A DNA stretch of 64,000 nucleotides from a virus (IMGVR_UViG_3300033998_000198:32001-96000), one strand, 5' to 3'; positions 7,792-61,028 are shown, counted from the stretch's first letter. A program made the numbers and translations. Notes: generated by a model not told the origin, from the sequence alone.

Positions 7792-7796
7792 GGTAA

Positions 7797-8603: not shown

Positions 8604-8615
8604 GAGGGTGGAGAT

Positions 8616-9746: not shown

Positions 9747-9762
9747 ATAAGGGGGTAATTAA

Positions 9763-10359
9763 ATGTTTGATCCAAAACAAGTAGACACGTTAGTAGCTAC
9801 AGCAAGAGAGACTTTGCGTAGACAACAGGAGGAGATGACACCAGGAGAGCCGGAGAATTTCTATCAGGACTTGATAGATGAGCAAAACGGAGAACAGGAA
9901 AAAGTTAAAGTACCTGAGAACGATTATGAAATAAAGAATGCTCCGGATAGTTACGAAGAAAGACCACATATTGCAAACAAACCAAGTGCAGAAGATTATC
10001 AGGAATATCCTAAAATTGATGAATTCGATAAACCAATATTCCCTGGCGGTCCGCTGCAATCTCAAATCAACTCCTGGAAGAAACAGTTCACAGGATATGA
10101 CATTTACGTTACAGAAGTGGCCGGAGAATACTTTGTATTCAGGACTTTGAACCGTTTTGAATACAAACAGATTGTATCTTTGCAAAATACAGATCCTCTC
10201 ATGCGTGAGGAAATTATCTGTGAAACCGTTACACTGTGGCCGGCAGGTTATAAATGGGATAGCATGGCAACGGGGAAGGCCGGCATTCCATCTACTTATT
10301 CTCAGATTATCATGGAGAAATCAGGATTCACTAAAGATTACGCTATCCAAATACTATAA
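9763..10359 (+). CDS. Putative tail assembly chaperone A (198 aa)
   Basis: Position between tube genes and tape-measure-position gene; acidic disordered N-terminus; FVFRTLNRFEYKQI motif shared with the next ORF. Confidence 0.6.
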   Translation: MFDPKQVDTLVATARETLRRQQEEMTPGEPENFYQDLIDEQNGEQEKVKVPENDYEIKNAPDSYEERPHIANKPSAEDYQEYPKIDEFDKPIFPGGPLQSQINSWKKQFTGYDIYVTEVAGEYFVFRTLNRFEYKQIVSLQNTDPLMREEIICETVTLWPAGYKWDSMATGKAGIPSTYSQIIMEKSGFTKDYAIQIL

Positions 10360-11066
10360 TGGAACAATTACAAGCATTCGATCTTTTGGTATTCAAGGAG
10401 CAGAATGAAGGTCACAGGGTCATGTATATCAATATTTGTAATCGTGAGTTTGTATTTAGGACTCTTGGAAAGAAGGAATACAAGAACATCCTGAATGTTG
10501 CAAATAATGAATTTGATCTCGAAGATATGATATGCCAGATTGCTTTGATATACCCTGAAGACTTTGACTTCAAGGATTGTCCTCTTGGAGGGTTGTCAAA
10601 GACAATTGCTCCTTTGATTACCGAACTTTCCGGATTTACCAATCCTGAGATCGTCCAGGAGACTTACGACCAGTATCGCCTGGAAATGAATAGTTTTGAG
10701 AATAAGGCATATGCCCTCATTAAGATGGCATTCCCCGAATTTACGTTTGAAGAAATGGAAGAATGGACATGGGATAAGGTTCTCAAGGTTGCAACAAAGG
10801 CAGAGTTTATCCTGAATGAAACTCACTTTAGAGATAACCCTATCGAGCTTGTCAAAGTAGACACTACGCCGCAGAAACAAATGGAACGCACTGAGTTTGT
10901 TCAGGAACTGCGGCAACAGGGTATTGACCCGATGAAATATTTCTGGAATGAAATTAATGTCAAGCCTCAATATGTAGACTTTCCGTTAATCGGTGGTGTG
11001 CATTGGCAGAACGAGGGGATATTGAATGAGATCAGACGACAGATGGAGAGAGCATCTAAGAGGTAA
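10359..11066 (+). CDS. Putative tail assembly chaperone B (235 aa)
   Basis: TAATG overlap with the previous gene; FVFRTLGKKEYKNI...IC...L..P motif paralogous to 9763-10359. Confidence 0.6.
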   Translation: MEQLQAFDLLVFKEQNEGHRVMYINICNREFVFRTLGKKEYKNILNVANNEFDLEDMICQIALIYPEDFDFKDCPLGGLSKTIAPLITELSGFTNPEIVQETYDQYRLEMNSFENKAYALIKMAFPEFTFEEMEEWTWDKVLKVATKAEFILNETHFRDNPIELVKVDTTPQKQMERTEFVQELRQQGIDPMKYFWNEINVKPQYVDFPLIGGVHWQNEGILNEIRRQMERASKR

Positions 11067-14000
11067 ATATCCAGAGTATCTGGGCAGACAGAGAAAATGG
11101 GCCGAAGATTATGACAGAGACGATACCGTAAAAGACGACAGCATCTTATCAAAACTGCTTATCGCTGCGGCGATAGGTGCTGCCGGATATGGTTTATATA
11201 AAAGCGGTGCATTAAGAAAGGCCATCAGTAAAGGCATTGATGAATTAGGGGAGTATAAAGGCGTTATCCCTGAAGCATTCAATGCCTTAAAAGCATGGAC
11301 TAAAACTGATGTGGATGTTCCAATCGGAAGCATATTCCGTCAGAATTTTTCCTCCTTAAAGTCTGTATCTAACTTTGTAAAGAACAAGGACATTATAAAT
11401 GACACCCTTGCCGATTTACGTGGTCTTCGTGAAATGGTTCAAAAGAGGATCGCACAGGTTAAAGATGAAGCCGACAGGATTACCAAAATGGCTGTCAAGG
11501 AAACAGACTTATTGTTTGAGATAGGTAATCTCAATGAAATGATGGATTCTGTCAAAGCAGACGATATACTGAAACGCCACCAAATGGAAATCGGAAACAA
11601 GGCACTTCAGACACTGATAGAAAAGAGAAGCGAAGGAGCTATGTCAAAGGCTGCCCAAGCAAAGCTCAAACAAAATGGATACAGGCTTCTTACTATAGGT
11701 GATGTTCTCAAGGTAGACACACAGACAAATAAACCGTTGCTTATTAACAGCACAAGCAGGTTCGAAGTAGAAGAACAGACATTAAAAGAACTGACAGATT
11801 TCTTCTCTACCTTTGAGGTAATAGACAAAAAGACCGGGAAGAAGTCTCTTGCAATCAATAACTTTGACATGATCAAAGACATCACATTCGATAGAGGACT
11901 CATGATCAATGAGTTCGGAAAGATTGCAGACATAAGGCGAGCTGACAGACACTTTGCACAGATGATGGTTTCTGCTTCGCTTGATTTTCATATACCGTTA
12001 ATAAAGATACGTCCGTTTGAAATGGTCGGACTGCATAACAAATTCATGCGTCAGGAAGTAAAATACGGTTATCTGTCTGCAAAAACATTTCAGCCAATAC
12101 TTACAGGTAAGCCCGGTCAGGAGTATCTCGGCAAGAGCATGGTGTTCATGCACGGTAATGTATTTGACATAGATAAAAACGGTAACATGAAATTAGTTGC
12201 CCAGGGAGGTAAACTGCTCCATATTCGTGACGACGCAAACGTTGGATATGGAATCAGCAAACACGCCGATATCATAAGAAAAATGGCAAACCTTCAGAAT
12301 GTACACTTCCAGACGTACACAGCCGAGGACGGACGAATCAAGGCGGCTTACTCTAAAGTGATGGAATGGTTCGGGCTTGGTTTCCAGGACAAGAAGATAT
12401 CAACGGAATTTGAACTCTTTAAGCCTTCAACATGGGATTCTCTACTTAATAAATGGCAGCCGTTCAGGCCATACAAATCCTCATTTGTAACAAGACCGCA
12501 GGATTCTTTCGGACATTCTCCGACAGGTCCTACGTATTTGTTTATGTATCAAGGCAAGACATTTAAAGACGTAATGCAAGGCAGCGTATCTATAGAGGAT
12601 TTCTTCAAGCAGTTTGTTGCAGGAAGAAAGAACTTGAAGAATGTAACTACGGCAACAATGGTTCCGTATCATCTTCTTGACCGTCTCAGCAACTCGCTGA
12701 GAGCTGTTAGTGCAGGTGGTATTAGCCTTGGCTTAAAGACAGAAGACCTTGGATCGGTCCAGGATATCTTCAAGAACTTGATGCTAAAGCGTATACTTCC
12801 GGTTTATCTTGGCATACAGGCTTGGATATACATAAATAACAAAGAAGAAGGCAAACAGCCTGAAGACAAGATTGCAAATACTGTTGTAAACCTCGACCTT
12901 GCATGGCATGGAGTAAAAGACAGGCTCGGCCTTACATCTTGGGCAAAACGTGTATCTCAGCTTATGCCAGGAGGAGAGCAGATAAGTGACATTCCCGGTC
13001 TTGGAGTTCTCGATATGACTTCAACCAGGGAGGAAAAAGAACAATGGTACAAGACTGGTATGGAGCCAATTCGTAAAGGGCGTTACTGGAGTCTTGGCAA
13101 TACTCCATTTACTGGAGGCAAGATAGAATATTATGCACCAAATTGGTACAGAAGGGTAATCAGCGATTACAAGTGGACAGATTCACAGTGGGGAAGTCGG
13201 GATGAATACTTTGCAAATGCTCCATTTCCGACTCCAAAATATCCTTTCGCTCCAATACGGCACTTTATTACTGACCCGTATCATTGGGAGAAAAAGCATT
13301 ATCATGACAGACCATATATGCTGTCGTCTCCGGCATTCAGTAATGTACCAATAGTAGGTCCTGTACTCAGTGCAACTCTTGGCCGGCTGTTAAAACCACA
13401 GATTCGCATGCATCCTGAAGCATGGGCACCAAAACTTGAAGGGTATTCGGTCGTGGATCAAGGAACAGGAGATAACACCGGTACTGTTCTTCCTGACCAA
13501 TTGGTTGCAACAAATAGGTTTCCTGGAACTGAAATCACAGTTGTCCCTGAAGCAGAAATGGGACAGAAGCCGCTTGATTCATTGTTTCATTGGAGCAGGA
13601 AACCGAAGACCAATACAAATGATATTATATATGTTACGCCAAGCGGGCAAACAAGCATTGTCAGCATACCTAACAGCATCTCAATCAAGGATTTGAACGA
13701 CCAATTACGTAAAGAATCAATCAGGAAAGTCCGTGGTGCGTCTGAGAAACGTGATGGTGGTCTGATTAAAGATAACGCTGTTGCAAAACAACTCATCAGC
13801 AATATCGAGAATACGTTAAATGACCAATACGATGTATTCTCTGAAATTGGAGGTATATATGGATTCGGTATCAATGCTCTTATAGGTAATGGTTCTGATG
13901 TTGGTGGTGTGGAAATCGAAACACCCGCCTATGCGACATCCTTAAATAAAGCATTCTGGGATCAGGATCTCGGTGGACTTGGTGGAGAATTCTCTGAAAT

Positions 14001-16617
14001 CTATCGTAGGTTTATACCAAAGAGAAGGCGTGAGATTGAATATTACAATCCAATCAGAAACACCATGCCTACATGGATGCCGGGAACAGATTATTTTACA
14101 GACTTCCAGCATGGTGATCCTTACGCCAAGATTAAACGTGGAGAAGCAAGACTTCCTGGAGAAGGGTATGAGAAGCTATATGGAATCAGAGACCCTATGG
14201 AGCTCGGAATAGGTTCGTCGTTTATAGGTAAATCAGTTGATGATATCGTTAAACATTTCTTACACCAGGACGAAATCATAGACGAAGACCAGCTTGATAT
14301 TGTGCAATCTGGTACAGATTTTCATGAGAAAGTTCAGTCGGCATGGAAAAAGAAAGGCTTGCTTCTTGATGCAGAAGTTGAAGTTAATGACAGGAAACAC
14401 AATGTCATTGGATTCTATGATGCACGTATTCTTGATGAATCTTCACCAACAGGCGACGCTATTGCTGAAATAAAGACAATCAACGATAATGGGTTTAAGG
14501 AACTTGACAAAAAAGGGCCAATGGATTACCACCAGAAACAGCTTAACTTCTATCTGTGGGCAACACATAGGCCAAAAGGTTATATTTATTACATCAACAG
14601 GGATCATCCGGAACAGGAAGCAAAAATATTCCCTATGGCATATGACCAGAAGATGATGGAAGAAACATTCAAGAATCTTGAGCAAGCCAGGAAGATCATC
14701 AAAGACAAAATAGCCTTAAATGAGATCCAAAGAGGAGACTTGTACGATTACTTTGACAGGTTCCGCATACTTGCAGATGTAGCACCATACTCAAAAGAGT
14801 TCAAAGAATACAGGGCTTTGATAAGCAAGATGCAGCTAACCAAGGAACAAGAGGCTGAAGCAAAGGAAATACGTAAGCGTGTAATTGAACAAAACAAACC
14901 GCTTAGGATATATCCTTATAAATTCCAGACTTCAAACATAAAAGTACAGACTGTAACTGTAAAACGCAAGATAGACAACGAGAAGTTCCTTACATATGAG
15001 TTCCCTGACAACCCAATAGAGCTTGCCGGCGTTAATCTTCCTAACAGCAAAACTTCCAAAGAAGGGAGGGCAGCAACTCAGTTTATTGACCGGTTTATCC
15101 ATGAAGGAGCCAGGATACAGGTCGGAGTTGATGCAGACCCGTTGAACCTTATACAGGATAACACTTATAAGACGATCAAAGCTGTCGTATACTCAGGCAA
15201 GACAAACATCAACCGCACGGCAATACAGCAGGGAGTAGGAAAGGAAAATGAAGATGACTTCTCGCCTGCCGGTGTTCATGCTCGTTTTACCGAAGGTGAA
15301 ATCAGATTCGGCAAAGTATGGGAGAAATTCGCTCACTTGAATACTATGTTCCATATAAAGTTCTTGCAGGTAAGGTCTGCACTTGAGAGTTATGAACGCA
15401 GGGATTTATACGGCAAAGACTTTCAAAGATGGGAGCATCCTATCCGGGACTTCCTCCGCCCAGCAATCGACCAGAATATAAACAACAAGTATGGAATACT
15501 GGTTGGCGGTTTGGTCGGCTCATTGTTTGGCCGTACACTTTATGGTAAAATTATAGGAGCAACAGTTGGTGTTGCAGTAATTGGTTCAGGTAAGGCATAC
15601 AAGAAAGCATATGAATTAATTTCAGGTGAGAAATGGATACCTGAACGCAGGGAAAAAGAACGTGATTTAAACGAATACATTGACATCCTGAAATTTATCA
15701 AATACAAGCGATTGTATGTTGAGTATGCACAGAAATCAAAACTCAAGGAGAACTTTGATGTTCAGAAGTTCCTTGACGCTCAGAAAGCTCGTGGTGAAAA
15801 AAATAAAGCAAGAATCAAGGATCTTGAAGAAGCAAAGAGGTTAATAAAAATCAAGGGCGACAGTGCAATACGGTCGATGTATAAACAGTATAGACCAAAA
15901 TACGGCACCCCAGGAATGAACGTGGACGAGATGATATCTGCAATCAACAAAGAAATGACAGAACTCATGAATGAACGAAAGGCCGTTAAAGTTCCAAAGA
16001 TTGCACAAAAGGCCATTGCATACTACAACTTATCAGAGAAGACCATGTACGGATACGATGTCGGAGAGCCTATCCAAAACATCCTGGCCGCAATGCCAAA
16101 GAAGGATAGACAGTATCTCAGTTACTTTATGAAAGCTCCGGAAGAAGAACGCATGAAGATTCTTGAGGTGGCTCCACGGTATGTCCGCAGGGTTCTCGAA
16201 CAAACATGGGGGCTGCCTGTTGAGGGCAAACCAGATCTTATTCAGTATTTCAAGCACCATCAACTTCCAGGACCTGACTGGGAAGGATGGGATGAAAACA
16301 TAAACCTGGATCTGGTTAAAGTTAAAATGGTTCGTAATGAAGCCCTTGATATTTCAGATTTTAATATCTGGGAAGACGACGTGCAGCAGGCAAAAGCAAT
16401 GGGACCTATTCCGCTGCCTAAACTATATATAAGTGACTATGCAGAGAAGGTAAAGGCAAAACTCGAAGATCTACTGCACGGAATAGGACTAAACGACGTA
16501 TCTGTAAGCTATTCTCTATCATCAAAGGATATTGATGTAGATATAGACCTGCAAAGAGACAAAAAGAAAGAGATAGAGAGGTACATTAACGAAAAAGGTG
16601 CATCTCTATTCCAATAG
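11026..16617 (+). CDS. Giant tape-measure-position protein with PD-(D/E)XK nuclease and degenerate thermonuclease-like domain (1863 aa)
   Basis: GAGGG RBS at 11013-11017. Hydrophobic Gly/Ala segments (IAAAIGAAGYGLY; GILVGGLVGSLFG...GATVGVAVIG). Nuclease motifs GTDFH (14311-14325), E, GFYD (D at 14419), EIKT (14467-14478), QLNFY. SNase-like V..KIDNEKF...IELAGVNLP...EGRAATQF...AVVY.GKTNIN (~14941-15250). Confidence 0.75.
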   Translation: MRSDDRWREHLRGKYPEYLGRQRKWAEDYDRDDTVKDDSILSKLLIAAAIGAAGYGLYKSGALRKAISKGIDELGEYKGVIPEAFNALKAWTKTDVDVPIGSIFRQNFSSLKSVSNFVKNKDIINDTLADLRGLREMVQKRIAQVKDEADRITKMAVKETDLLFEIGNLNEMMDSVKADDILKRHQMEIGNKALQTLIEKRSEGAMSKAAQAKLKQNGYRLLTIGDVLKVDTQTNKPLLINSTSRFEVEEQTLKELTDFFSTFEVIDKKTGKKSLAINNFDMIKDITFDRGLMINEFGKIADIRRADRHFAQMMVSASLDFHIPLIKIRPFEMVGLHNKFMRQEVKYGYLSAKTFQPILTGKPGQEYLGKSMVFMHGNVFDIDKNGNMKLVAQGGKLLHIRDDANVGYGISKHADIIRKMANLQNVHFQTYTAEDGRIKAAYSKVMEWFGLGFQDKKISTEFELFKPSTWDSLLNKWQPFRPYKSSFVTRPQDSFGHSPTGPTYLFMYQGKTFKDVMQGSVSIEDFFKQFVAGRKNLKNVTTATMVPYHLLDRLSNSLRAVSAGGISLGLKTEDLGSVQDIFKNLMLKRILPVYLGIQAWIYINNKEEGKQPEDKIANTVVNLDLAWHGVKDRLGLTSWAKRVSQLMPGGEQISDIPGLGVLDMTSTREEKEQWYKTGMEPIRKGRYWSLGNTPFTGGKIEYYAPNWYRRVISDYKWTDSQWGSRDEYFANAPFPTPKYPFAPIRHFITDPYHWEKKHYHDRPYMLSSPAFSNVPIVGPVLSATLGRLLKPQIRMHPEAWAPKLEGYSVVDQGTGDNTGTVLPDQLVATNRFPGTEITVVPEAEMGQKPLDSLFHWSRKPKTNTNDIIYVTPSGQTSIVSIPNSISIKDLNDQLRKESIRKVRGASEKRDGGLIKDNAVAKQLISNIENTLNDQYDVFSEIGGIYGFGINALIGNGSDVGGVEIETPAYATSLNKAFWDQDLGGLGGEFSEIYRRFIPKRRREIEYYNPIRNTMPTWMPGTDYFTDFQHGDPYAKIKRGEARLPGEGYEKLYGIRDPMELGIGSSFIGKSVDDIVKHFLHQDEIIDEDQLDIVQSGTDFHEKVQSAWKKKGLLLDAEVEVNDRKHNVIGFYDARILDESSPTGDAIAEIKTINDNGFKELDKKGPMDYHQKQLNFYLWATHRPKGYIYYINRDHPEQEAKIFPMAYDQKMMEETFKNLEQARKIIKDKIALNEIQRGDLYDYFDRFRILADVAPYSKEFKEYRALISKMQLTKEQEAEAKEIRKRVIEQNKPLRIYPYKFQTSNIKVQTVTVKRKIDNEKFLTYEFPDNPIELAGVNLPNSKTSKEGRAATQFIDRFIHEGARIQVGVDADPLNLIQDNTYKTIKAVVYSGKTNINRTAIQQGVGKENEDDFSPAGVHARFTEGEIRFGKVWEKFAHLNTMFHIKFLQVRSALESYERRDLYGKDFQRWEHPIRDFLRPAIDQNINNKYGILVGGLVGSLFGRTLYGKIIGATVGVAVIGSGKAYKKAYELISGEKWIPERREKERDLNEYIDILKFIKYKRLYVEYAQKSKLKENFDVQKFLDAQKARGEKNKARIKDLEEAKRLIKIKGDSAIRSMYKQYRPKYGTPGMNVDEMISAINKEMTELMNERKAVKVPKIAQKAIAYYNLSEKTMYGYDVGEPIQNILAAMPKKDRQYLSYFMKAPEEERMKILEVAPRYVRRVLEQTWGLPVEGKPDLIQYFKHHQLPGPDWEGWDENINLDLVKVKMVRNEALDISDFNIWEDDVQQAKAMGPIPLPKLYISDYAEKVKAKLEDLLHGIGLNDVSVSYSLSSKDIDVDIDLQRDKKKEIERYINEKGASLFQ

Positions 16618-16628: not shown

Positions 16629-19600
16629 ATGGCAATTAGACCGGTAATGAGTGCTAATATGAACAGTAACCTGAAGATGAACAGGTATAGTGATTTCTTC
16701 AATGGCATGGATGAAGAAAAGATTGACGCATATAAAAACGTCCGTGGAATGATAGATGAGTTAAAAGGTACTGAAGCCGACGTATCATTAAAGGACTTTT
16801 ATTTCAAGTCATTCAATGCAGGAGTAATGGATTATAACATTCCTGCACTTGAGCAAGGCATGAATATGTTTAATGATATGCTGGACGCCGGTGCCGGTTC
16901 TGTGTACGCAATGGACCTTGAAACTCTCGGCAACCCTTTTGGTGATGCATCAGAAAAGGGTTTGTTTGCCATTACAGAAATGACTCTTACCAAGAAAGAT
17001 CTCGCAACAGGTACTGTCCTTGACGTACAAAACGTCCTGTTCGGCCTTACTGAAGAACAAAGGCTTGCTTACGAAAATCTGATTGCCAGAGCTGAACTCG
17101 GATACAACTCATTGACCAGTTCAGAAAAGGCAACTATAGAACGTCTTGCAAGGTATGGAGCAAAGGATACTAAGATTATTAACAGAGGAGGCAAAGCAAT
17201 ACTTGCCAACCTCGGTATAGCTAATCCTATGGATCTTACCGCAGCAAAGAAGGGTTTAAATAGACTTGTAGATATAGGTCCCGGGCAGGCATGGGGTAGC
17301 CAGTTTGCCCGTGACCAGCTAATCATTGCATCAAATCACTTAAATCAGATAAAAGGCCCAAACAATATTTTGTTCACACACAACGGCAGCAAGTTTGATA
17401 TGCCTGCTTTTAACGAAGCATTACGTATGCATGGTATTAGCAATACAATTAACGACATAAACCATGTTGACTTTCAAGCTGCCATTCATACAGCATATGG
17501 TGGAGATACACTGAATCTTCACTTAACAGCCCGTGAAACAAACGGTGTAAAAGGTAAGATTAAAGGGGCTCTTGAAACTCTTGATAAACTTGCAGAATCT
17601 TTTGGTATAAGGACTCACGCCCATGTTGCCTCAAACGACAACAGGACGTTGATTAACCTTTTAACTGCTCCGTACAGGAAAACTGAGCATGGTACAATCA
17701 ATCTTGGCCAGGACTTAAAGTCCAGACTGAATGCATATTCAGTTCTGTCAAAACACCAGGACATTGATCCAAGCACTGTTGCTGACAAGGTTATATTCGT
17801 AAAGAATGCCGTATATACAAATGGTCTTGACTACATAAAAACAAGTGAAGGAATCAAACCTTACGGAGACTGGCCATTACAAAGGAATAATTTCTATAGG
17901 ATTGAAAATGTCGGGAAAGTAAATATCAAAGACACCGCTTCTTTGCGGAAGATAGGCATAAATGTGCCTGCCGGAAGCACTGGAAGTGATCTTTATTATA
18001 TGACACTACGCAATGTGGCTACCGGTAAAGAAGAAGAAACAATAAATATAGTACGTAGTTCAAGAGAAGAACTTCAGGCATTGTTCCAGAAAAATCTTGA
18101 GGTGTTCCGGTACACTAAAGACCTTAAAGATATAAGTTCAGACCTTGACGCAAAGATGGCATTGCAAAACCAGATTGTAAGCCAGGCAATGATTGATGAA
18201 ACGACAAGGCTTGCCACAAGGGACAATGCAAGACGTAAGTTTGAAGGTATGTTCCAGACTTCAGGTAAAGGGTTTAATTATGCCAAAGGAATGTACCAAA
18301 CCTATAATAATTTATACCAGAACGGCATTACAACAGCGGAAGAAGCGGCACTCTATATCCAAAACAATCCTACAAGTGAATTGTTAAGAGGTCTTCAGTA
18401 TAAAGGAGATATTATACCCGAACGTCGTAGTGATTTCCTTGAGATGTTCAACCTCATCAGAGATACTTCAGACACGATGACTACTGTAATCAACAGAATT
18501 GAATCCAACATCCCAGTCAAAGGAGAAGCTGGAACCGTCAAAAGGACTGTTGCTCTCGGACGTGCGTATGAGAATCTTCAGAATGCAATTATGCAAGCCT
18601 CCGGTGTTGCTGAGAACATAGCAAAGAACAGGAAGCTGATAACCCCATATCCAATGGATATTGACGTTATTAATATAGGTGTTGATGACATTCATAGAAT
18701 CACTGTAAGGGCTCGTTCTGTTGAAGAAGCAAGGATTAACATATTAAATGGAATAGACAAACTGGTAGGTACAGAGAAGAACAAGAGGGCAAGAGAAAAC
18801 AAACGAATGTTCTATCTAAGACGGCTTGCAGAGAATGTCTATGGAAAAGATTCAGAGAAGCTGGAACGTATGTTTGGTCAGCTTGACAGTGCATACTATA
18901 CTGCCGGAGAAATTGCAGGCGACCTTAACAAACAGTTCCTTGACGGAACATTAAATATCGGCCGTGACGAGATATACGCTACAGATCTTGATAGTTATGT
19001 CATCAATTCATCTACATTTGACCAGTTCATGGTTGATAATAACATTAACGTTCTTGGCTTGACCGACGCTGCAAGTGCCCATATCGGGTCTTTAACCGAG
19101 GCTTCTCTTGGCGATACAGTTGTCATGGAAAAAGGCGTGTTTACCATTAAGGATGAAAACCTTAGAAAACTCTTGATGGAGGATTATCACTATAGTGCAG
19201 ATAACGTGCACGACCTTATGAGAGGATTATATGGTAAAAGTCCGGATGGTACTGAATACGGCCTTGTCAATAAACATGGTTTGGTTGCCGAATTGTTTGT
19301 TGACGAAGAAGGGTATCTTTCTATAGCATTGACAGACAAGAAACATGCAACAGAATTATACGAATCTCTGGCAAAGAACGAGGTTCCAAAGAACGCGGCC
19401 ATATCAAGGCTTCCGCAGGTAAGCTATTATGGCGATGACACTGACCTGTTAAAGAAGGTGTCATTTGGAAGCGTTGAGAAACAGGTAACTACTGAACTTA
19501 ATACATATTATTCTCCTGGTTCGAGCGAAAGCTATTATAATAACATCAGGATAGCTGCAAGGGACACAACCAGCGAATCGCTAAACTCCCTTGTTAAACT

Positions 19601-22600
19601 CCACAGGGTTCTTCCTGACCTGATAGAAGCAGGAGAGTACGACAGAGCTTCAAGGCAGCTTACAAATACAATGGCTGCTCCTATATTTGGAGGTTCTGGT
19701 TTCTCAGGAAATACAACAGTAGCAATTGACGATATTCTTGCTGAAAAAGCTCTGCGTCCGAACGTATCCGATATTATCACGGCATCGACCGTAGATATGA
19801 CCGGACTTGTAAACTTCATCCCTGAGCTCTATAAAAGAGACGAAGAAATAAGAAATGACCTTAACCGCATACTTGTAAACAACAAAGCGATCGACGACAG
19901 ATTTATTGATAACTGGATAAGGGATATCCAGGCAGGAAACCTCAAACAATTCAGTGACATGGACATCGAGTTACGTGAATGGTACACGATGAATATGTTT
20001 GAAGGTCATAAGATACTGCATAAAATCCGCGACCTTAAAGCTGAAGGAGGACGTTTATTCCAGAAGGAAGTCTCATTACTTGACAGCTTGATTGCAAATG
20101 GAGCTTCGTTCTTTAACAAGGCTGAAAAAGTATCTGAGGGTATTGCTGTATTGGAAAATCCATTTGAGTATGTAACATATGGATTCATGAATGAGCTTTC
20201 CCGTCCTGTCGCAAGGCAATCACTTGCATTTCACGCCCTTGACCCAAGAGAACTTACAGGTGCTTCAGTTAAGCTCGAAGCGGCCGGTATGAAACTTGGA
20301 CAGACTGTAGTTACAGACAAAATGTATAACAAGTATCTGAAAAAGTATAGGTTTGAAACAGGAATTACCGGTGACATAAAGAATTTGAATGACACCGAGA
20401 TACTTGATGCAATAGAATCTCTTGACAAAGAAGAATTATACAAGAAGTATGGTAGGTCAAGAGTTGATAAGGTTATAAATGAATATAAGACAATCGGTAG
20501 TACATTCCAGCAGCACTCATTGATTAATCCGATGCTGACTGCTGACATATACAACAAACCTGAGCTTATAAAATTTGATGTGACAGGCAATAGTTTTGAG
20601 TTTGCCGAAGGGCTTGGTGTTGGTAAAAAAATCAAATCCGGTTCTTTACTCGGATACGAAATAGACGGAGAAACAAGAAGGGCTGTTGTATACAATGGTC
20701 AGGATGGAATAATCTCTGGATTTATCAACAGAAAGAACGCACAAAAAGTTGTCATAAAACCATTTAATGCACAGATAGATGAAATAAAGCTCATCATGGG
20801 AGGTGTTGAAAAATCTGTTGCATCTGTTGTAAACCGAGATGCCGAAATGCTTCCTATAGCTCAGGAAATCTGGGATAAACTATTTGGTAAGAGTACAGCG
20901 GTCGTAGGGCGATTTGAAATAGGAAAGCACGAAGCTGCAAGCATCGCATACGGTAGCACTATTACCAGAATGGCTGAAAGAGCTCTTGAGCATGGAGAAG
21001 CTGTACAGAATGAATTCGCCAATCTTTTAAACCAGAACCTTCCCGAATGGAATGGCCGATGGGAAGGAAACAAGTTTGTCATTTCAGGGAATCCGAATGC
21101 TGCCGGAGGACATTTCAGCGGCATACGAAACCTTGTTGATGCAATGAGAGATAAGGGTATTTATGATGATATCATAGCCGACTTTGACAATCCGAACACA
21201 AATACGCTGCGTACTTTGATATCTAAAGGTCAGATGTCCGAAATGTTTTCTGTCATGGAAGACGAAGCGGATATTTACGGAAAAGGTCTCAAAATTACAG
21301 ACCGTGAGTTACAGATTGCAGGTATTAGATCTGGAGAACAACCGACGGATTTCTTTTTCCAGGATGCCAACGGTAAATGGCAAAAGAAATTACAACCTGT
21401 TATTGACGCATGGCGTGAGGAAATCACACGAGAAAATATCGAGCTTGAGAACGGTAAATTACTTGAAACCAATTACAGCAAAGCAAAGAAAGACCTTAGA
21501 AATATAACCAACACATACAGTGCATTGCGTGGCGAAACACCGACAGCAGCTATTAAAGAACTTCATTTTGATGATGTAAAACCGATATTAAAAGGTGTTG
21601 ATGCTGCAACACTCGAAGATGCTTTAAAAGGGACTGTGTTTGAAGATGTTGCCGATGTGTTTAAGATTACCCTTCCAAATAATATGAAGGTCTTAAACAT
21701 GGTTACAGGCGAAATGGATGACCATATTTATATACCGTATCTGCACTCATACGATATTGACGGCAAGGTTATTACACATAACGCCCACAGAAAATCAGCA
21801 GACCTTCTAAGGATGCTTGACAGTATTGCCGAAGGCAAACTTCCTAACGGCGTAAGAAGCATGAGTCAATTACAGAGTGCATTAAATGACGCTTATGCTG
21901 AAGCTATGGCCGCATACGGGCGTGAACTGTCTGATGACAAGAACAGTATATTAAAGAGACATCTGGTGTCCGGAAGATTATCACATTCGGGACAGGGACT
22001 TGCTGGTGCTGTTGTTTCACCTGAATTATTCAAAAACGGCGAAGTAGATTCACGGCTTGCCGGAATTGTGCATAGCGATGTTGTAGAGAAGGTCGGAGAT
22101 AAAATACTCTATAAGGATGTTGCTTATACATCTGCTGAGATGCTCGAAGACATGGGTGTTAACTTTGCAGAGATAGGGCGGCAGGTTCTTGAAGACAAGA
22201 AAATACGTTCTCAGATTGGTGACGTGGACGCATTTATTGCAAGATCCGGATTTAACCGCTATGATCTTACAAAGGCACCTATAGACATTGACATGCTCCA
22301 TGAGATCATCAAGCAGAAGATACTGAAAGACAACAATCCTTATACAATAGATGATGCAAGGGAAGCCCTTGAGAACCTCACTCAGCTTGGTAAATATTAT
22401 GCAAGAGAAAAGGGTATCATGAGTATAATGCTTCGTTATCCGTCATTCTTGCAAACATCTCTTGGAGTAACAAATATCAGATTGTCTCCTTACATGCATG
22501 GTCGTAAATTCAACATCATGAGTTGGACGGCAGCAGGATTAAACGCCGACATTGACGCTGATAGACTTTCTGTATGGCTCAATCTTACAAAAACCGGAGG

Positions 22601-25523
22601 ACTTCAAGCTGATACTGAAGTTAAACAGAAAGCACTGATAGATGTATTTAACGCTCAAGCAAGAAACAATGCCAAGCTATTTAAGAAGGCTCTTGAAGAT
22701 TATGCCGACGTAGAGCCTGACGGACTCAAGGCTTATAGTGCAAAAGGCTTCGATGAATTTCTTGTCAAGAAGATTTCAAAGAAGTTAGGGTACACCGGAA
22801 CAGATCAGGAAATCTTCGACCAGTTTGATGCAAGATCCAACAAACTGATGGACCCTGAAAGAAGAATGACAGCCGTAAAGGCCAACTTTGACAAGGCCGG
22901 TATCGGTTATATATCAAACACTAATGTGATTGTAAGGGATATAGCTTTTGAACAATTCAGAGATTCTGGTGATATATATACACTTTCAAACATCCTTGAG
23001 TTTACAGACAAGACAGAGCAGAAACTGATTGACGTTAAGCATATGAAAACAATGGGCGAGGGAAGCGGTAATATTGATGATATCATTATCAAAGCCGGAC
23101 GATACAGAACTGCAATAAACACCCTCGCAACAGGTGATGCAAGGCAAAAAGATGAAGCAATCAACAAACTTCGTGAAATTTTGTTCAATAGTGATGTTTA
23201 CAAGAGAGAGCAGTCCGTAAGGGTTGATGAAGTTCTCAGTTCGCTCCGTCAATTGTTTGACAGCAAGTATGCAAAACAATGGACAAACCCAATCAGAAGC
23301 AAGATGTCAGGAAAAAATTATGCCGAACAGATTAAGGACGTCAATAACTTCCTGAAGAATCCCACAGCATACGGCGGGACTGAGTTAACAAATCTTTCTG
23401 TCAATGAAGTGATTCATGCAAATGATATAGACACTATAAGCATTGACGATACAGCTCTTGTTCCTCCATCAAAAGGAACAGAATATCCCGTCTTGCTAAA
23501 GGACAGTGCTGGCAAAACATCTCCACCAATAGGTGCATATGTATATAGTGGTTCAGGTGTTGGTGCCAATACCAATATGAAGTATGTTGAGCTTGAAGAA
23601 TTCATCACAGATCCTTCTGTAAACAAAGCAAGAAGCAAACGTTACAGGATATACGGCAATACAATGGCTGATATCCAGCGTCAGATGAGAGATGAGTTCA
23701 GAGTAGCAACTGACATCAATGATGTCCAGAATTTGATTGATGTTGAGAAGGGTAGAATCCTTGACTCGGCGATGTCAAGCGGTTTTGAGTTCGAGAAAGA
23801 GCGTATTACGGCTGAATTCTTAAACGGTGGAAGTATTGATGATATTTTGGCCAAATCAACCATAGGGGTAGAGAACCGTCAGGATATCATCGATCATCTT
23901 ACCAATCTTAACCCTACTCAATATCAAAGCGAAGCATACAGGCAATTGGCTTCAGAGTTCTTTGACAACGAAATGACTGGCCGGCCAATGCGTAGATTCT
24001 CTGCCGCAGTATCAGAACTGGCTGAAAGAAATTACATTGGAAACCAGGCAAGTCTTATACAGGCATTTAATAACTATATACGGCAACGTGGTGCTGAAGG
24101 CCCTTCAGACAAATGGAATCCTGCAATGATTTCAGATGTCCATGATGAATTAATCCGAAAGGCATTGTATCAGGTTCCAGGTCTTCCATCAGCACAGATA
24201 GAAGGAATCCTAAACCAGGTTAACACCGTAGCGGACGATATGATAGCCCGTAAAGGAGAAATACGGTTAAGACCTGCTAAAGTACAGAATGTTGCCGAGA
24301 CTATTGCAAGAATACAGGATACTCCATTGTATGACATGAAAAGTGCCTTCTCTCAACTTGAGAACATGGCAAACGATATGTTAGGCAATATAACAAAAAC
24401 TCAACTGGAAAGTTTTGCTGAAGCAACACGGCTTAGTCCCGAAGATGCTATCGCAAAACTTAGGCATACTGTAAAGAACGAGAATATCCAACTTCCATTC
24501 AAGGCAATCACTCAGGCTGAAAGCGTTAAGATAGCTTCGCTTAACCAAATGTATTCAGAGCTTCTTGCGTCAAAGAACCAAGAAGCAATGGATTTCCTTG
24601 GCTGGAAACCTATAAATGAAGTTGTCAACGCATACAACCCAAGTGCGGCAGCAAGAGCTGTAGGTGAAACTTACGACCCAATTGCGGCCATACGTGAAAT
24701 TGGCCAATCCAAAGTTACTTATGGAAGATATGCCGGCATGGAGTTCTCGTCATTATCAATCGGGGAGCTCAAGGAAATTATGAATCTCCGTCCTGAAACT
24801 GCAAAGACCAGAATTGAAGCGGACAATATTGTAGCTCTCAAACAAAGAGTAAATCAATATTTCTCATTGCTTGACCAGAATACATCAGCAGTAAGAGCTG
24901 AAGGAATTAGTATAAATATTCCTGAAGCTGTACGCAAATCGAGGTATGTTGATGTAGATATAAACGAACTTTTAAAGTCCAATGGTATAAAGTTAAAGAA
25001 CTTGGACGATTTATTGGATACAACCAAAAGGGACTTAAAATTTGATATGGCTCGTGGTACAATAAAAGAAGGGGTAGAAAATGCTGTCAAGCGTTCCGAA
25101 GATTTGTTTGGAAGCAGTAAGTTCGGAAAGATAGCTCTTGCCGGTTTGGCTCTTGGTCTTGCAGGATATATTGTTGGACAGATGAGTGCAAAACCAGGAC
25201 CGCTACAACCGGAGCATAGACCTTCAGGCGAAGGAGCTCCCGCACCAGATGGAACTTACGAACCGAAAGTCAACTATAAAACACCACAACCGCAGATGCC
25301 AAAGAAAGCAGTAATGCAGGAAAACAATTCTGGAATGCGGATAAAGATAAGTGCAAAGAATGGAACCAGCATGTCAAACAGTGATGTTGCTGGAGCAGTA
25401 AACAAAGCCATCGCTGATTCCTTGCCAAATAGAATGAATGTCAACGTGGTTTCAAGAGACGACACCAGTGCAGTCAATGACAGTTGGTTGGAAGAACAGT
25501 TTAAGAGGCTTATAGGAGGGTGA
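16629..25523 (+). CDS. DEDDh exonuclease fused to single-chain two-barrel (double-psi beta-barrel) RNA polymerase, putative virion RNAP (2964 aa)
   Basis: Exo I MDLETLG (D96,E98), Exo II HNGSKFD (D257), Exo III HVASND (H332,D337). Beta-like KLIMGGVEK (K1387/K1395, spacing 8 as in E. coli beta K1065/K1073). Beta-prime-like LRYP (R1936) and NADIDAD (D1974/1976/1978). Downstream GIGYISN and QKLIDVKH. C-terminal hydrophobic helix. Confidence 0.85.
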   Translation: MAIRPVMSANMNSNLKMNRYSDFFNGMDEEKIDAYKNVRGMIDELKGTEADVSLKDFYFKSFNAGVMDYNIPALEQGMNMFNDMLDAGAGSVYAMDLETLGNPFGDASEKGLFAITEMTLTKKDLATGTVLDVQNVLFGLTEEQRLAYENLIARAELGYNSLTSSEKATIERLARYGAKDTKIINRGGKAILANLGIANPMDLTAAKKGLNRLVDIGPGQAWGSQFARDQLIIASNHLNQIKGPNNILFTHNGSKFDMPAFNEALRMHGISNTINDINHVDFQAAIHTAYGGDTLNLHLTARETNGVKGKIKGALETLDKLAESFGIRTHAHVASNDNRTLINLLTAPYRKTEHGTINLGQDLKSRLNAYSVLSKHQDIDPSTVADKVIFVKNAVYTNGLDYIKTSEGIKPYGDWPLQRNNFYRIENVGKVNIKDTASLRKIGINVPAGSTGSDLYYMTLRNVATGKEEETINIVRSSREELQALFQKNLEVFRYTKDLKDISSDLDAKMALQNQIVSQAMIDETTRLATRDNARRKFEGMFQTSGKGFNYAKGMYQTYNNLYQNGITTAEEAALYIQNNPTSELLRGLQYKGDIIPERRSDFLEMFNLIRDTSDTMTTVINRIESNIPVKGEAGTVKRTVALGRAYENLQNAIMQASGVAENIAKNRKLITPYPMDIDVINIGVDDIHRITVRARSVEEARINILNGIDKLVGTEKNKRARENKRMFYLRRLAENVYGKDSEKLERMFGQLDSAYYTAGEIAGDLNKQFLDGTLNIGRDEIYATDLDSYVINSSTFDQFMVDNNINVLGLTDAASAHIGSLTEASLGDTVVMEKGVFTIKDENLRKLLMEDYHYSADNVHDLMRGLYGKSPDGTEYGLVNKHGLVAELFVDEEGYLSIALTDKKHATELYESLAKNEVPKNAAISRLPQVSYYGDDTDLLKKVSFGSVEKQVTTELNTYYSPGSSESYYNNIRIAARDTTSESLNSLVKLHRVLPDLIEAGEYDRASRQLTNTMAAPIFGGSGFSGNTTVAIDDILAEKALRPNVSDIITASTVDMTGLVNFIPELYKRDEEIRNDLNRILVNNKAIDDRFIDNWIRDIQAGNLKQFSDMDIELREWYTMNMFEGHKILHKIRDLKAEGGRLFQKEVSLLDSLIANGASFFNKAEKVSEGIAVLENPFEYVTYGFMNELSRPVARQSLAFHALDPRELTGASVKLEAAGMKLGQTVVTDKMYNKYLKKYRFETGITGDIKNLNDTEILDAIESLDKEELYKKYGRSRVDKVINEYKTIGSTFQQHSLINPMLTADIYNKPELIKFDVTGNSFEFAEGLGVGKKIKSGSLLGYEIDGETRRAVVYNGQDGIISGFINRKNAQKVVIKPFNAQIDEIKLIMGGVEKSVASVVNRDAEMLPIAQEIWDKLFGKSTAVVGRFEIGKHEAASIAYGSTITRMAERALEHGEAVQNEFANLLNQNLPEWNGRWEGNKFVISGNPNAAGGHFSGIRNLVDAMRDKGIYDDIIADFDNPNTNTLRTLISKGQMSEMFSVMEDEADIYGKGLKITDRELQIAGIRSGEQPTDFFFQDANGKWQKKLQPVIDAWREEITRENIELENGKLLETNYSKAKKDLRNITNTYSALRGETPTAAIKELHFDDVKPILKGVDAATLEDALKGTVFEDVADVFKITLPNNMKVLNMVTGEMDDHIYIPYLHSYDIDGKVITHNAHRKSADLLRMLDSIAEGKLPNGVRSMSQLQSALNDAYAEAMAAYGRELSDDKNSILKRHLVSGRLSHSGQGLAGAVVSPELFKNGEVDSRLAGIVHSDVVEKVGDKILYKDVAYTSAEMLEDMGVNFAEIGRQVLEDKKIRSQIGDVDAFIARSGFNRYDLTKAPIDIDMLHEIIKQKILKDNNPYTIDDAREALENLTQLGKYYAREKGIMSIMLRYPSFLQTSLGVTNIRLSPYMHGRKFNIMSWTAAGLNADIDADRLSVWLNLTKTGGLQADTEVKQKALIDVFNAQARNNAKLFKKALEDYADVEPDGLKAYSAKGFDEFLVKKISKKLGYTGTDQEIFDQFDARSNKLMDPERRMTAVKANFDKAGIGYISNTNVIVRDIAFEQFRDSGDIYTLSNILEFTDKTEQKLIDVKHMKTMGEGSGNIDDIIIKAGRYRTAINTLATGDARQKDEAINKLREILFNSDVYKREQSVRVDEVLSSLRQLFDSKYAKQWTNPIRSKMSGKNYAEQIKDVNNFLKNPTAYGGTELTNLSVNEVIHANDIDTISIDDTALVPPSKGTEYPVLLKDSAGKTSPPIGAYVYSGSGVGANTNMKYVELEEFITDPSVNKARSKRYRIYGNTMADIQRQMRDEFRVATDINDVQNLIDVEKGRILDSAMSSGFEFEKERITAEFLNGGSIDDILAKSTIGVENRQDIIDHLTNLNPTQYQSEAYRQLASEFFDNEMTGRPMRRFSAAVSELAERNYIGNQASLIQAFNNYIRQRGAEGPSDKWNPAMISDVHDELIRKALYQVPGLPSAQIEGILNQVNTVADDMIARKGEIRLRPAKVQNVAETIARIQDTPLYDMKSAFSQLENMANDMLGNITKTQLESFAEATRLSPEDAIAKLRHTVKNENIQLPFKAITQAESVKIASLNQMYSELLASKNQEAMDFLGWKPINEVVNAYNPSAAARAVGETYDPIAAIREIGQSKVTYGRYAGMEFSSLSIGELKEIMNLRPETAKTRIEADNIVALKQRVNQYFSLLDQNTSAVRAEGISINIPEAVRKSRYVDVDINELLKSNGIKLKNLDDLLDTTKRDLKFDMARGTIKEGVENAVKRSEDLFGSSKFGKIALAGLALGLAGYIVGQMSAKPGPLQPEHRPSGEGAPAPDGTYEPKVNYKTPQPQMPKKAVMQENNSGMRIKISAKNGTSMSNSDVAGAVNKAIADSLPNRMNVNVVSRDDTSAVNDSWLEEQFKRLIGG

Positions 25524-25530: not shown

Positions 25531-28500
25531 GTGGCAGACTATAGAAAAAGCACTTCCCTGTTCTCTAAATACAGAGATCCGGGAGGTATTAGCACAGGCG
25601 AGCTATTAGACAGATATTACAACATTCCCGAAGGCAGGACTACAGCTCCCCTGTCTTACCTTGATAATGTCGATTTTCCGCATAGGATATTCGATTTCCA
25701 TTATAACTTCAGACTTGGCGATTGTCAGTTCAAGATCCCTCCGGAATTCATACAGGTAAAGACAATTACCGAAACAAATTCCGTTGTAGGAATTAGACAG
25801 TCTACTTCGCTAAAAACCAAATCCGGGTATAGCCGTAAACAGATCGTTATTACTCTGTTTTTCAACGGACTTAACCAGATCAACGGATATAAATGTGAAT
25901 CGCCTTTTTCATATCCTTACTACATGGACGGTCTCCGGAGTCTTCTTGCTCAATTCAAGAGGACCCCGTTCCTTCCTGTTGTAAATGAACTTATTAATGG
26001 AGTACATGGAATATACAATGTAGCATTATCAAACATTACAATCAACACCGTACAGGGGTTTCCTGAATGTCTCCAGGCGGAACTCACGTTGCTTGACTTT
26101 AACGTCGTACCGTTGATTGAAGCTCCTCCTTTTATGTATCATAACATGATAGACTGGGATATGTTCAGATGGTACTATCAGCAATTACTTCGCCCTGATG
26201 ACAGGGTATACGACAGGAACGAACATGCTACAACAAGACTTCAGCCGATACAGAATACAAACCTTACAGGTAAGTTCGGATTGTATATATTAAGCGAAGA
26301 AGCTCTTGCTGCAATGAACGACGGAAAGTACAAGCCAGACCTAAGCGACAGCAGTAACTATATACTGTGTGTTGACGACGAAACCGGTATACGCCTGACA
26401 GATATATTCTGCGGTTACTCAAACGTGCTTCCTGCAATACAGTTAAGCAAAGAAGGGACGCCTACGTATCAGTATCTTGGAGGTACAGATGCGACGTTTA
26501 CCTTTATATTTGAAACTCAGGACAGAGATGTCGTTACGGCTCTGGTTGACTTAAATGAACGATGCCAGAGGATGGTAAGGGAGTACCGCAAACTTCACGG
26601 CCTCGGCTTCATCAAAATAGAGAACGAATTAGTGCAAATGCTCGGTGCACAGTATGTCATGTTCAATACAATGGACATCACTACTGTGCCCGACTTCCCA
26701 GATTTGTTTAGAATACAGATAGAGGCTGTAAGTTACGATATTGACCAGAGTAAGAAAGAAACATTGACTGGCATGAAGCCTTTCGATGGCGATGGCACAT
26801 TGCTTGCCAGAAAAGTAGGTACAACCTATGATTGGACTGAAGTCGCAGAACCAAACACAACCATCACTAACACTTATATGGGTCTTATCACAAAGATCCG
26901 GCAGGACAATTACATAGAACACAAGATGAAGCTCATGGACCTTTATCCGGACCTTCAGCTACCTACGTTTGAAGAATTGGATGATTTTATCACAACCATA
27001 AGAGAATGGAGAAGGAGTAAGGGGCTTCAGGCATATCCTTTGTCTGGACCGTACCCGAAAGACGACGGTAGAATTAAATTCTCAGATCCTGATTTCTACG
27101 TTTTCTACCCTATTAAATACGGAGACGCACAGAATATTATAACAGGAACCGGAGGAAATGTAGGAGGAGAAACTTACGATCCTGATGACGGTGCAATTTC
27201 AGTTGCCGGTATATTCAAGTCTGGATTGTATGGTGCAACAGAAACTACGCCCGGACAGCACCCAAAGACACAAGAATTGCTTAAACTTCTTGAGAGCAAA
27301 ATAGGATGCGGATATGTATGGGGTGCTGAAGGAGAGATTCTTACTCAGGAAGGTCTTGCTGCCTTAAAGAAGCAATTTGGAGCAAGTCATTATGATTTTG
27401 TTGATGATGATGGCACTCGTGTTCTTGCAAGTAAATGGATAGGTAAACAGGTGTTCGACTGCTCTGGATTTATTAACTGGGGGCTTATCCAGGTTGGAAT
27501 TGCTCCAAAAGGATACAGAACCACACATTCAACTACTTTTAATGACTGGTGTATCGAAATCAAAAAGAGCGAAATACTCCCTGGCGATATAGCCATGAAT
27601 TCAACCCATATCGCAATGATATCTGATCCTGACAAAGATCAAACAATCGAGGCTATGGGTACACGGTACGGTGTTGTTCACGGAAAGATAGGGAATAGAT
27701 TCACAAAGTTTGGAAGACTAAAAGGCGGAAAGACAAAGAGCTCAACAACTCCAACACCGAATGCCGCAACTCAACAGGTTAGCAAGGCACAGACTACAGA
27801 TTACAATGCAAAGCGTGATGCTTATAACCCGACATACCAGGCAATTTACGATTATGCAAACATACAGTGCACAAAGCTCGGCGTTCCAATTCGTCTAATG
27901 TGTGCAATGATGGAGATAGAAAGTAATTGGACACAATGGTGGACGACAGCAGGGAAGAAAGCGGATGGCAAGTACCATAACGCAGGAGATGTTGTAAGGT
28001 CTTACGCAAATGCTGTTGGTATCTGCCAAATTGTGCACCATAGTCCTAACGGTACTCCTGTCAATAATCAATACGATTATGACAAACTGCAAAATGACTG
28101 GAGATATAATATAGAGTGCGGGGCCAAAGAACTTTATGAATGCTATAAGGGGGCATCACAAAGATTTACAAATGAAGAAGACCGAGCAAGAGCTGCATGG
28201 TGTGCATATAACATGGGGCGTTATGCAAGTCAGAGCTATACAAGATGGAGAGATAACCCTAACAGGGATGATATAAAGTTTAAGGAATATTATGAGAAGC
28301 AACCCTGGTTATCGAGAATTGACACCGCAAAGATTCCGACTTCCAATGGGACAGATTACACTGGAAGCGTAGAAGTTCCAGAAACCGACCTTAGTGTTAC
28401 AAACAACTTTGCAAGTCTTAACTTCAACAGGGAGGAATTCGGCAAAGATATACGCAGACTGTCCGACATCCACGGCGGTGTAAAAGAAACCAAGAACTTT

Positions 28501-60458: not shown

Positions 60459-60469
60459 GAGTGAGGTCA

Positions 60470-60721: not shown

Positions 60722-60775
60722 GAAAAATTTATAAAATTTTATAAAAATCTATACACAATTTATAAAAAATCCCAC

Positions 60776-60943: not shown

Positions 60944-60969
60944 AAAATCACCTCCTAAAAAATATTGTA

Positions 60970-61015: not shown

Positions 61016-61028
61016 AATAATTAGGAGG

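Follow-up and report, generated by a model that had tools for sequence, protein, structure and literature searches.

The gene considered here, P0001, is found in a 64,000-nucleotide stretch of viral DNA (IMGVR_UViG_3300033998_000198:32001-96000), called the window below. The window covers bases 32001-96000 of an IMG/VR viral contig that is 131,934 bp long and estimated to be 61% complete. The + strand carries all genes in the first 64 kb, and a contractile-tail module is situated there. P0001 lies in this module and encodes a putative chain of 2964 amino acids (aa), the central part of which is predicted to fold as a single-chain two-barrel RNA polymerase. Starting from the N-terminal end, the chain displays an exonuclease, a region of unassigned fold, a beta-like module, a beta-prime-like module and a C-terminal module similar to gp146 of Bacillus phage 0305phi8-36. 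An earlier note on this DNA had proposed the polymerase; the N-terminal exonuclease and the gp146-like C-terminal module are both absent from it. The features of P0001, with positions in the window, are:

16629-25523, + strand: whole gene, an open reading frame of 2964 aa
16881-17753, + strand: predicted DEDDh (DnaQ-like) 3'-5' exonuclease domain, aa ~85-375, with motifs D96-x-E98, N252...D257 and H332...D337
17754-20141, + strand: conserved region of unassigned fold, aa ~376-1171, with invariant D401, D532 and R535 and near-invariant R536 and D1048
20142-21284, + strand: beta-like module with the first double-psi beta-barrel, aa ~1172-1552 (VIA-align)
20559-20765, + strand: barrel-sandwich-hybrid flap-like insert, aa ~1311-1379, directly preceding the strand that bears K1387; it includes GKKIKSGSLLG (aa 1332-1342)
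20787-20813, + strand: KLIMGGVEK, aa 1387-1395, with K1387-x7-K1395 spaced as E. coli beta K1065/K1073
21285-21308, + strand: GLKITDRE, aa 1553-1560
21528-23408, + strand: beta-prime/Rpb1-like module with the second double-psi beta-barrel, aa ~1634-2260 (Foldseek, VIA-align)
21924-21998, + strand: switch-2-like motif E-x4-K-x-[GS]-[IL]...G-R-x3-S-G, aa 1766-1790 (family hidden Markov model, HMM)
22434-22442, + strand: R1936-Y-P1938, part of LRYP (aa 1935-1938), counterpart of beta-prime R425-x-P427
22542-22562, + strand: NADIDAD, N1972-D1978, putative metal-binding Asp triad, which HMMER pairs with NADFDGD 458-464 of E. coli beta-prime
22854-22967, + strand: bridge-helix-like long helices, aa ~2076-2113, with K2089, G2093 and S2096 (model helices 916-930 and 932-953)
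22974-23132, + strand: trigger-loop-like helix-loop-helix in the model, aa ~2116-2168, with E2130, Q2131, K2137 and H2138
23616-25520, + strand: C-terminal module common to 0305phi8-36 gp146, aa ~2330-2964 (BLASTP, family HMM)
25122-25178, + strand: single Gly/Ala-rich hydrophobic segment, aa 2832-2850 (sequence scan)

Conservation of the P0001 family

As a single sequence, P0001 gives no significant match in Pfam, PHROGs or PDB sequence searches, so that routine annotation would call it hypothetical, as the earlier note had foreseen. No annotation of the protein family as a polymerase is found in the databases, and a tblastn search with the whole of P0001 against 50,697 deposited phage genomes shows no match at 1e-5. 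A HMMER search of 1.84 billion representatives yields 34 relatives, most of which are 2800-3170 aa in length. Conservation was determined from an alignment of 28 full-length homologues that are 19-41% identical; the AlphaFold input was a 35-row family alignment.

Approximately 70 of the 2964 positions are conserved at 85% or above. E1394 and K1395 show 100% conservation and K1387 shows 96%, the value also found for R1936, P1938 and each of D1974, D1976 and D1978. Further downstream, K2089, S2096, E2130 and K2137 are at 100%, H2138 is at 89%, and G2093 and Q2131 are also among the positions conserved at 85% or above. The Asp triad is intact in 27 of the 28 homologues, and 27 retain the complete set of catalytic residues in exonuclease and polymerase alike. 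Near-invariance of the catalytic residues at such a low overall identity indicates selection on catalysis. A single DxDxD is expected by chance in approximately 3000 residues, thus the DxDxD alone proves nothing and conservation is the real test. This expectation is what would favor reading the motifs as chance matches in a long protein, a reading that is refuted by motif conservation, by the fold matches and by the HMM alignments to beta-prime described below, and to which practically no credence is given.

In one full-length homologue, P0026 (3008 aa), the Asp triad, K1387 and R1936/P1938 are no longer present, nor are D96, N252 and H332 of the exonuclease.

The polymerase core

The AlphaFold model of aa 1161-2260 shows a predicted local distance difference test score (pLDDT) of 83.5 and a predicted template modelling score of 0.84. 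Foldseek with this model against PDB gives 189 matches at E<=1e-3, and the 50 matches listed are almost all labelled RNA polymerase beta-prime. VIA-align, a fold search independent of Foldseek, divides the model into two clearly separate parts. The beta-like module matches beta of the plastid-encoded polymerase (Z = 11.9), the beta-like chains of the phiKZ and AR9 non-virion RNA polymerases (Z = 11.7), and Pol IV, Pol I and Xanthomonas beta (Z = 10.3-10.9). The beta-prime-like module matches Rpb1 (Z = 9.6), human Pol I A (9.4), archaeal A' (9.1) and M. tuberculosis beta-prime (8.9). Whole-chain matches are to QDE-1 (Z = 10.1 over 428 residues), maize RDR2 (9.8), P74 gp62 (8.4) and crAss gp66 (6.5 over 448 residues), and isolated double-psi beta-barrel domains are matched at Z = 6.5-7. 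The model supports a single-chain two-barrel RNA polymerase core in aa 1161-2260, with a beta-like barrel followed by a beta-prime-like one, which agrees with the proposal of the earlier note.

The open reading frame and all motifs quoted in that note are present at exactly the coordinates given there. The basic pair in the beta-like barrel of the two-barrel superfamily is Rpb2 K979/K987 and E. coli K1065/K1073; in P0001 it is K1387/K1395. Both residues are near-invariant, fall inside the part of the model matched to beta and, as had been claimed, have the eight-residue spacing of E. coli beta. In the E. coli K-12 genes, beta K1065/K1073 are indeed eight apart, and beta-prime R425/P427 and D460/462/464 are found as expected of the comparison. 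The GKKIKSGSLLG segment, which had been called sandwich-barrel-hybrid-like, is part of a real domain match: the insert at aa 1311-1379 resembles the E. coli beta flap 3tbi_B (Z = 7.3) and the T. thermophilus beta flap 3woe_A (Z = 6.9), tied with biotinyl/lipoyl domains at Z ~7. GLKITDRE had been set against GQRFGEME of beta; no alignment links the two, and K1555 and R1559 of this motif are conserved within the family.

The family HMM searched against the E. coli K-12 genes aligns with beta-prime at 442-473, which includes NADFDGD, and at 319-356 (P0001 aa ~1760-1797), the switch-2 segment. The switch-2-like motif is kept across the family, with E1766, K1771 and R1783 conserved, and it is also aligned to plastid beta-prime 350-384 in PDB (E = 0.0033); these scores are weak and are support, not proof. 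Against PDB the family profile gives weak but consistent beta-prime matches (E = 0.003-0.2) at the NADFDGD region and at one upstream region. The R-x-P approximately 35 residues ahead of the triad is invariant in the superfamily (Rpb1 R446/P448; PMC2919709). The distance from R1936 to D1974 is 38 residues, and the likeness of LRYP and NADIDAD to beta-prime that had been noted is borne out by the high conservation of R1936, P1938 and the triad.

Behind the second barrel, long helices surround K2089-G-I-G-Y-I-S (GIGYISN, aa 2091-2097). These are followed in the model by a helix (956-978), a loop (980-992) with pLDDT<50 and another helix (995-1008); QKLIDVKH (aa 2131-2138) is situated here, and the spacing of Q2131-x6-H2138 is that of beta-prime Q929/H936. 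From the model, aa ~2076-2113 plausibly represent the bridge helix and aa ~2116-2168 the trigger loop. For the fourth acidic residue (Rpb2 D837; QDE-1 D709) the best candidate column is T-x-E-Q, aa 1292-1295. The Asp triad and the two lysines may converge on one cleft, for which the high predicted template modelling score and the whole-chain matches to QDE-1 and gp66 give indirect support.

The exonuclease domain and the middle region

The motifs Exo I (DxE), Exo II (NxxxxD) and Exo III (HxxxxD) are near-invariant in the family. The model of aa 1-1180 has a pLDDT of 80 and gives fold matches with Z = 11-13.4; those to the DinG exonuclease domain (13.4), Pol III epsilon (12.9), Exo I (12.6) and TREX1 span Z = 11.8-13.4. 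The family profile searched against PDB sequences finds TREX1-like proteins and Exo I with E-values of 2e-5 to 4e-4 and, with DnaQ proteins included, up to 1e-2. Thus aa ~85-375 are predicted to form a DEDDh 3'-5' exonuclease. The conserved region that follows, aa ~376-1171, is folded in the model with pLDDT mostly 70-90; exonuclease matches filled the fold-search list of aa 1-1180.

Type of polymerase

Pfam PF00623 (Rpb1 domain 2) gives E = 0.09 for P0001 and 0.0027 for the best family member, both below the cut-off. No match of PF00562 is seen in the contig at E<=1, nor of the RNA-dependent RNA polymerase (RdRP) family PF05183 in aa 1161-2260 at E<=1. A barrel-sandwich insert is common to cellular-type beta barrels and is absent in RdRP, YonO and NCgl1702-type enzymes (Iyer et al., PMC7824862). 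Switch 2 is among the elements without which RNA-dependent enzymes exist (Ruprich-Robert and Thuriaux, PMC2919709). The P0001 polymerase looks nearer to the beta/beta-prime type than to YonO/QDE-1 because it has the flap insert and the switch-2-like motif, its best sub-threshold Pfam match is Rpb1 domain 2, and no RdRP match is found. Membership in the YonO/RdRP family was considered and is rejected in view of the lack of a PF05183 match and the presence of the flap insert. The kinship to gp66, YonO and QDE-1 suggested in the earlier note holds in part: QDE-1 and gp66 are whole-chain fold matches, but the closer affinity appears to be with beta/beta-prime.

A two-barrel polymerase with another job, e.g. 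a PolD-like DNA polymerase, a primase or an RNA-templated enzyme, would fit some of these data. Proofreading DNA polymerases usually have a DEDDh exonuclease on the N-terminal side of the polymerase, and both QDE-1 and RDR2 are among the whole-chain matches. However no PolD chain is present in the 50 best fold matches, where beta and beta-prime dominate, and P0001 lacks a Pfam RdRP match, unlike the YonO-like proteins encoded together with its relatives. R1936 and N1972 are the counterparts of R425 and N458 in beta-prime, two residues that touch the ribose hydroxyls of the incoming nucleoside triphosphate. Also, both the switch-2-like motif and the flap insert count among the features of DNA-templated RNA polymerases (PMC2919709, PMC7824862). 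Such another job is considered quite improbable.

The C-terminal module

BLASTP aligns the last ~150 aa of P0001 with gp146 (E = 7e-7). Family HMM positions 2320-2496 and 2731-2892, which are P0001 aa ~2340-2540 and ~2830-2964, match gp146 with E-values of 3e-10 and 1e-15. gp146 shows no match to the first ~2300 positions of the family HMM, no exonuclease motifs and no DxDxD. With the enzymes in front and a shared tail-protein module behind, P0001 is a fusion, and by sequence comparison the lineage holds both fused and unfused versions. gp146 has been detected in 0305phi8-36 virions by mass spectrometry, according to its GenBank record, and is labelled a hypothetical tape measure. It is only hypothetical in that role, and the upstream gene of ~1.9 kaa could be the ruler instead. 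The hydrophobic segment is situated ~115-130 residues from the C-terminus in P0001 and in four of five other homologues scanned. An ESM Atlas search with the C-terminal 705 aa returned only scores <0.8, which are uninformative.

The tail module and neighboring genes

The main genes around P0001 are:

280-1830 and 2652-4961, + strand: sheath paralogue and sheath
9763-11066, + strand: two small genes in the slot of the 0305phi8-36 'tail chaperonins' gp143 and gp144
11026-16617, + strand: upstream giant gene, 1863 aa, positional counterpart of the 0305phi8-36 virion protein gp145
25531-31161, + strand: downstream baseplate hub, 1876 aa, with SLT and NlpC/P60 cell-wall-degrading domains, counterpart of gp147

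Tube-like proteins upstream and baseplate genes are also part of the module, in which giant genes of 1863, 2964 and 1876 aa stand in a row. The gene order, i.e. sheath, tube, two chaperonin-like genes, a ~1.9-kaa gene, a ~3-kaa gene and the hub, matches that of 0305phi8-36, and the order and several of the proteins correspond to its gp137 to gp151. P0001 occupies the slot of gp146. The location given in the earlier note, in the tail module between chaperonins and hub, is correct; P0001 is however in the tape-measure slot itself and not beside a tape-measure-like gene. Around the homologues P0003 and P0011 the 0305phi8-36 order is kept from the chaperonin-like genes through the ~1.9-kaa gene to the ~3-kaa gene, and for P0003 up to the hub. 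Weaker relatives are Bacillus phages Edson, WH1 and KLEB27-3 and also Moorella phage MTATph1.

Several neighboring open reading frames carry further motifs. The 1863-aa upstream gene (11026-16617, +) shows a Cas4-like PD-(D/E)XK nuclease signature at aa ~1117-1225 (PHROG 1990, E = 1.2e-5; PDB 4ic1, a Cas4 structure, E = 0.1), and its product may be packaged in the virion as a second enzyme. A 4110-aa open reading frame (36019-48351, +) matches the virion structural PHROGs 32678 and 21285 in its final ~270 residues and nothing in the remainder; it is probably a giant fibre or baseplate-attached protein. The tube-paralogue-like 5904-7430 (+) and the neighboring 8616-9746 (+) display peptidoglycan-binding or endolysin-like segments; together with the SLT and NlpC/P60 domains of the hub, the tail thus carries several cell-wall-directed domains. 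The G+C content is 0.31 at 60001-62000 compared to ~0.40 elsewhere, and an intergenic gap (60459-61257) is found there.

Related loci and a second polymerase

A pattern-based search for related loci with a 221-aa piece found no match. With a 10-row alignment it matched two viral contigs in IMG/VR, and in 185,579 species genomes none was found, which, the search being pattern-based, is no proof of absence. A distant family member is present in a cultured phage: gp034 of Bacillus phage vB_BauM_KLEB27-3 (7463-14767, 2434 aa), annotated as 'structural protein', matches the local family HMM with E = 3e-48. It carries the exonuclease motifs, NRYP...KADYDGD (DYDGD at 1933) and the C-terminal module.

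In Moorella phage MTATph1 the slot before the hub (7739-15095) contains a 1309-aa open reading frame, then a transposase gene, then a 313-aa open reading frame that matches the family C-terminus. The 1309-aa frame has a weak match (E = 1.6e-8) to ~130 N-terminal profile positions, unexpectedly at its own aa 837-959. The counterpart gene in this phage may have been split by an insertion element.

In BFVD, the polymerase core has its best viral fold matches in giant-protein fragments without annotation, namely A0A7R7G2L5 (E = 7e-16), one labelled 'minor tail protein' from an uncultured siphovirus (1e-13), and others from Acinetobacter phage ME3 (2e-9) and Microcystis phage MaMV-DC (9e-5). Giant proteins of crAss phages are also present in the BFVD matches. 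Hidden tail-associated two-barrel polymerases seem to be widespread.

0305phi8-36 also encodes gp99, a YonO-like enzyme noted in the literature (PMC7824862, PMC2919709). Both of the IMG/VR contigs matched above have the giant-protein homologue; one is complete, 199.8 kb with terminal repeats, and the other is 185 kb. Both encode gp99-type proteins (E = 8e-93 and 1e-38) with Pfam RdRP matches of 3e-32 and 5e-22. In the KLEB27-3 genome tblastn finds no gp99-type polymerase at 1e-5.

Comparison with known systems

In Thermus phage P23-45, gp96 is a virion polymerase fused to the tape measure, which transcribes the pre-early genes including a second polymerase gene, gp64 (Chaban et al. 2024, PMC10770324); relatives without the fusion exist (PMC10770324). 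Like P0001, gp96 is a single-chain two-barrel polymerase within a giant tape-measure-slot protein that has a hydrophobic segment. The relatives G18 and phiFa lack the fusion and keep the other polymerase, as does 0305phi8-36 here, and both groups have a second phage polymerase gene at another genomic location. However, P23-45 is a siphovirus and the gp96 polymerase is at the extreme N-terminus (aa 327-1124), flat and without a clamp, whereas P0001 comes from a phage with a contractile tail and its polymerase is central (aa ~1170-2260), behind an exonuclease and ~800 residues, with the flap-like insert and the switch-2-like motif. The partner polymerase in P0001 relatives is of the Pfam-RdRP/YonO type and is no evident duplicate.

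No sequence homology between gp96 and P0001 is detected, and gp96 is absent from the 50 best fold matches in VIA-align, which contain the paralogue-type P74 gp62 at Z = 8.4. The supplement of PMC10770324 on two-polymerase viruses lists none of 0305phi8-36, ME3, MaMV, LMM01, WH1 and KLEB27. P0001 appears to lie outside the gp96 family because of the lack of a sequence match, the absence of gp96 from the 50 best fold matches, the central polymerase with its flap-like and switch-2-like elements, the exonuclease and the contractile tail. By analogy, the best reading is that the P0001 family would be functionally like gp96.

Protein gp66 (PDB 6VR4) of phi14:2, a crAss-like phage, is likewise giant, virion-carried, single-chain and two-barrel, and its triad (DFDID) lacks the Gly, as does DIDAD of P0001. 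It comes from a podovirus-like phage in which it is cargo and not a tail-slot protein, and it is closest to QDE-1. In the part of the source covered, no flap insert or exonuclease domain is reported for gp66, and its sequence has no detectable homology to P0001. YonO of SPbeta and 0305phi8-36 gp99 are single-chain two-barrel enzymes of Firmicutes phages, as P0001 appears to be. However, gp99-type proteins match Pfam RdRP PF05183 at 1e-18 to 3e-32 and P0001 does not; YonO-type enzymes are without the barrel-sandwich insert (PMC7824862), are ~800-1400 aa in length and are encoded outside the tail module.

Beta and beta-prime, together with the phiKZ and AR9 multisubunit polymerases, give the best fold match for each half of the core (Z = 10-12 and 9-9.6). 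Features shared with P0001 are K-x7-K, R-x-P, NADxDxD, the switch-2-like motif, the flap-like insert and Q-x6-H at the trigger-loop position. In P0001, however, a single chain holds both halves, the accessory domains of beta and beta-prime are for the most part missing or not recognised, and the sequence similarity is sub-threshold. 0305phi8-36 gp146 has the same slot and a homologous C-terminal ~650-800 residues, but is without the enzyme parts.

Virion carriage and function

P0001 is probably a virion-carried RNA polymerase and exonuclease in the tape-measure slot of a 0305phi8-36-like myovirus; we infer its packaging, injection and activity. Virion carriage is suggested by the synteny together with the C-terminal homology. 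The C-terminal module would build P0001 into the tail, and on infection the protein would leave the tail ahead of or with the DNA. The polymerase core would then transcribe the first phage genes independently of the host RNA polymerase. In the complete relatives these genes could include the separate YonO/RdRP-type polymerase, resulting in a relay such as that of P23-45 gp96 followed by gp64. The exonuclease might act on the DNA end as it enters, by trimming or resection, or be directed at nucleic acids of the host or of its defences.

Alternatively, the exonuclease and the polymerase could form one injected machine, or else a proofreading two-barrel polymerase; the two together are regarded as unlikely, and for the latter no precedent is known to us. 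In the injected-machine version, the C-terminal tail module would anchor at the entry pore and the DEDDh domain would resect the 3' strand of the genome end. The core would transcribe the exposed single strand without a duplex promoter or sigma and thereby pull the ~200-kb genome in.

Several points weigh against virion carriage of active enzymes. A polymerase core of ~120 kDa cannot sit folded inside the tail tube, and an exonuclease domain of ~35 kDa has to travel as well. gp146 lacks the exonuclease and the polymerase, so the virion evidence applies strictly to the shared C-terminal module. In P0026 both enzymes look dead from the sequence and the protein is kept, which suggests that a purely structural role can suffice. 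The candidate fourth acidic residue, E1294 in most homologues, is Q in P0001 and in the three relatives closest to it. In the triad, DIDAD, the Gly of DFDGD is missing; crAss gp66 is active with DFDID. A search of the P0001 contig with 0305phi8-36 gp99 gives no match, the contig being 61% complete.

Some of these points would suit a structural tail or ejection protein in which both the polymerase-like and the exonuclease-like domains are relics without activity, used as scaffold only: P0026 is full length though its catalytic residues are lost, Q stands at the candidate fourth acidic position, the triad has no Gly, and the 0305phi8-36 tail is built with a gp146 that lacks the polymerase part. 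Retention of all catalytic residues of both enzymes in 27 of the 28 homologues, where they are among the best conserved positions, makes such a protein rather improbable.

The difficulty of fitting folded enzyme domains in the tail tube would instead favor an active polymerase that stays out of the virion. It would be expressed along with the late tail genes and work solely within the cell in which it is made. Against this are the fixed position of the gene, from the chaperonin-like genes to the hub, in divergent relatives and the homology of the C-terminal module to a virion protein detected by mass spectrometry. The distant KLEB27-3 gp034 is labelled a structural protein (the basis of the label is not stated), and a late-only polymerase has no obvious task. 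An unpackaged enzyme is hence given little weight, and carriage in the virion is preferred.

RNA polymerases delivered with the virion have been demonstrated in N4, crAss-like phages, phiKZ-like jumbo phages and the Thermus phage P23-45 group, and they let a phage start its programme without the host enzyme. If the interpretation of P0001 is true, the tape-measure-slot polymerase is extended to contractile-tailed, Firmicutes-type large phages, and co-residence with a YonO-type polymerase in the relatives suggests a two-polymerase relay. Compared to the minimal YonO/QDE-1 enzymes the core retains more beta/beta-prime features, and an exonuclease is attached to it; this bears on the kinship of single-chain and multisubunit two-barrel polymerases. 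The presence of gp034 in the cultured phage KLEB27-3 would make the idea directly testable, with the unfused 0305phi8-36 as a natural comparison.

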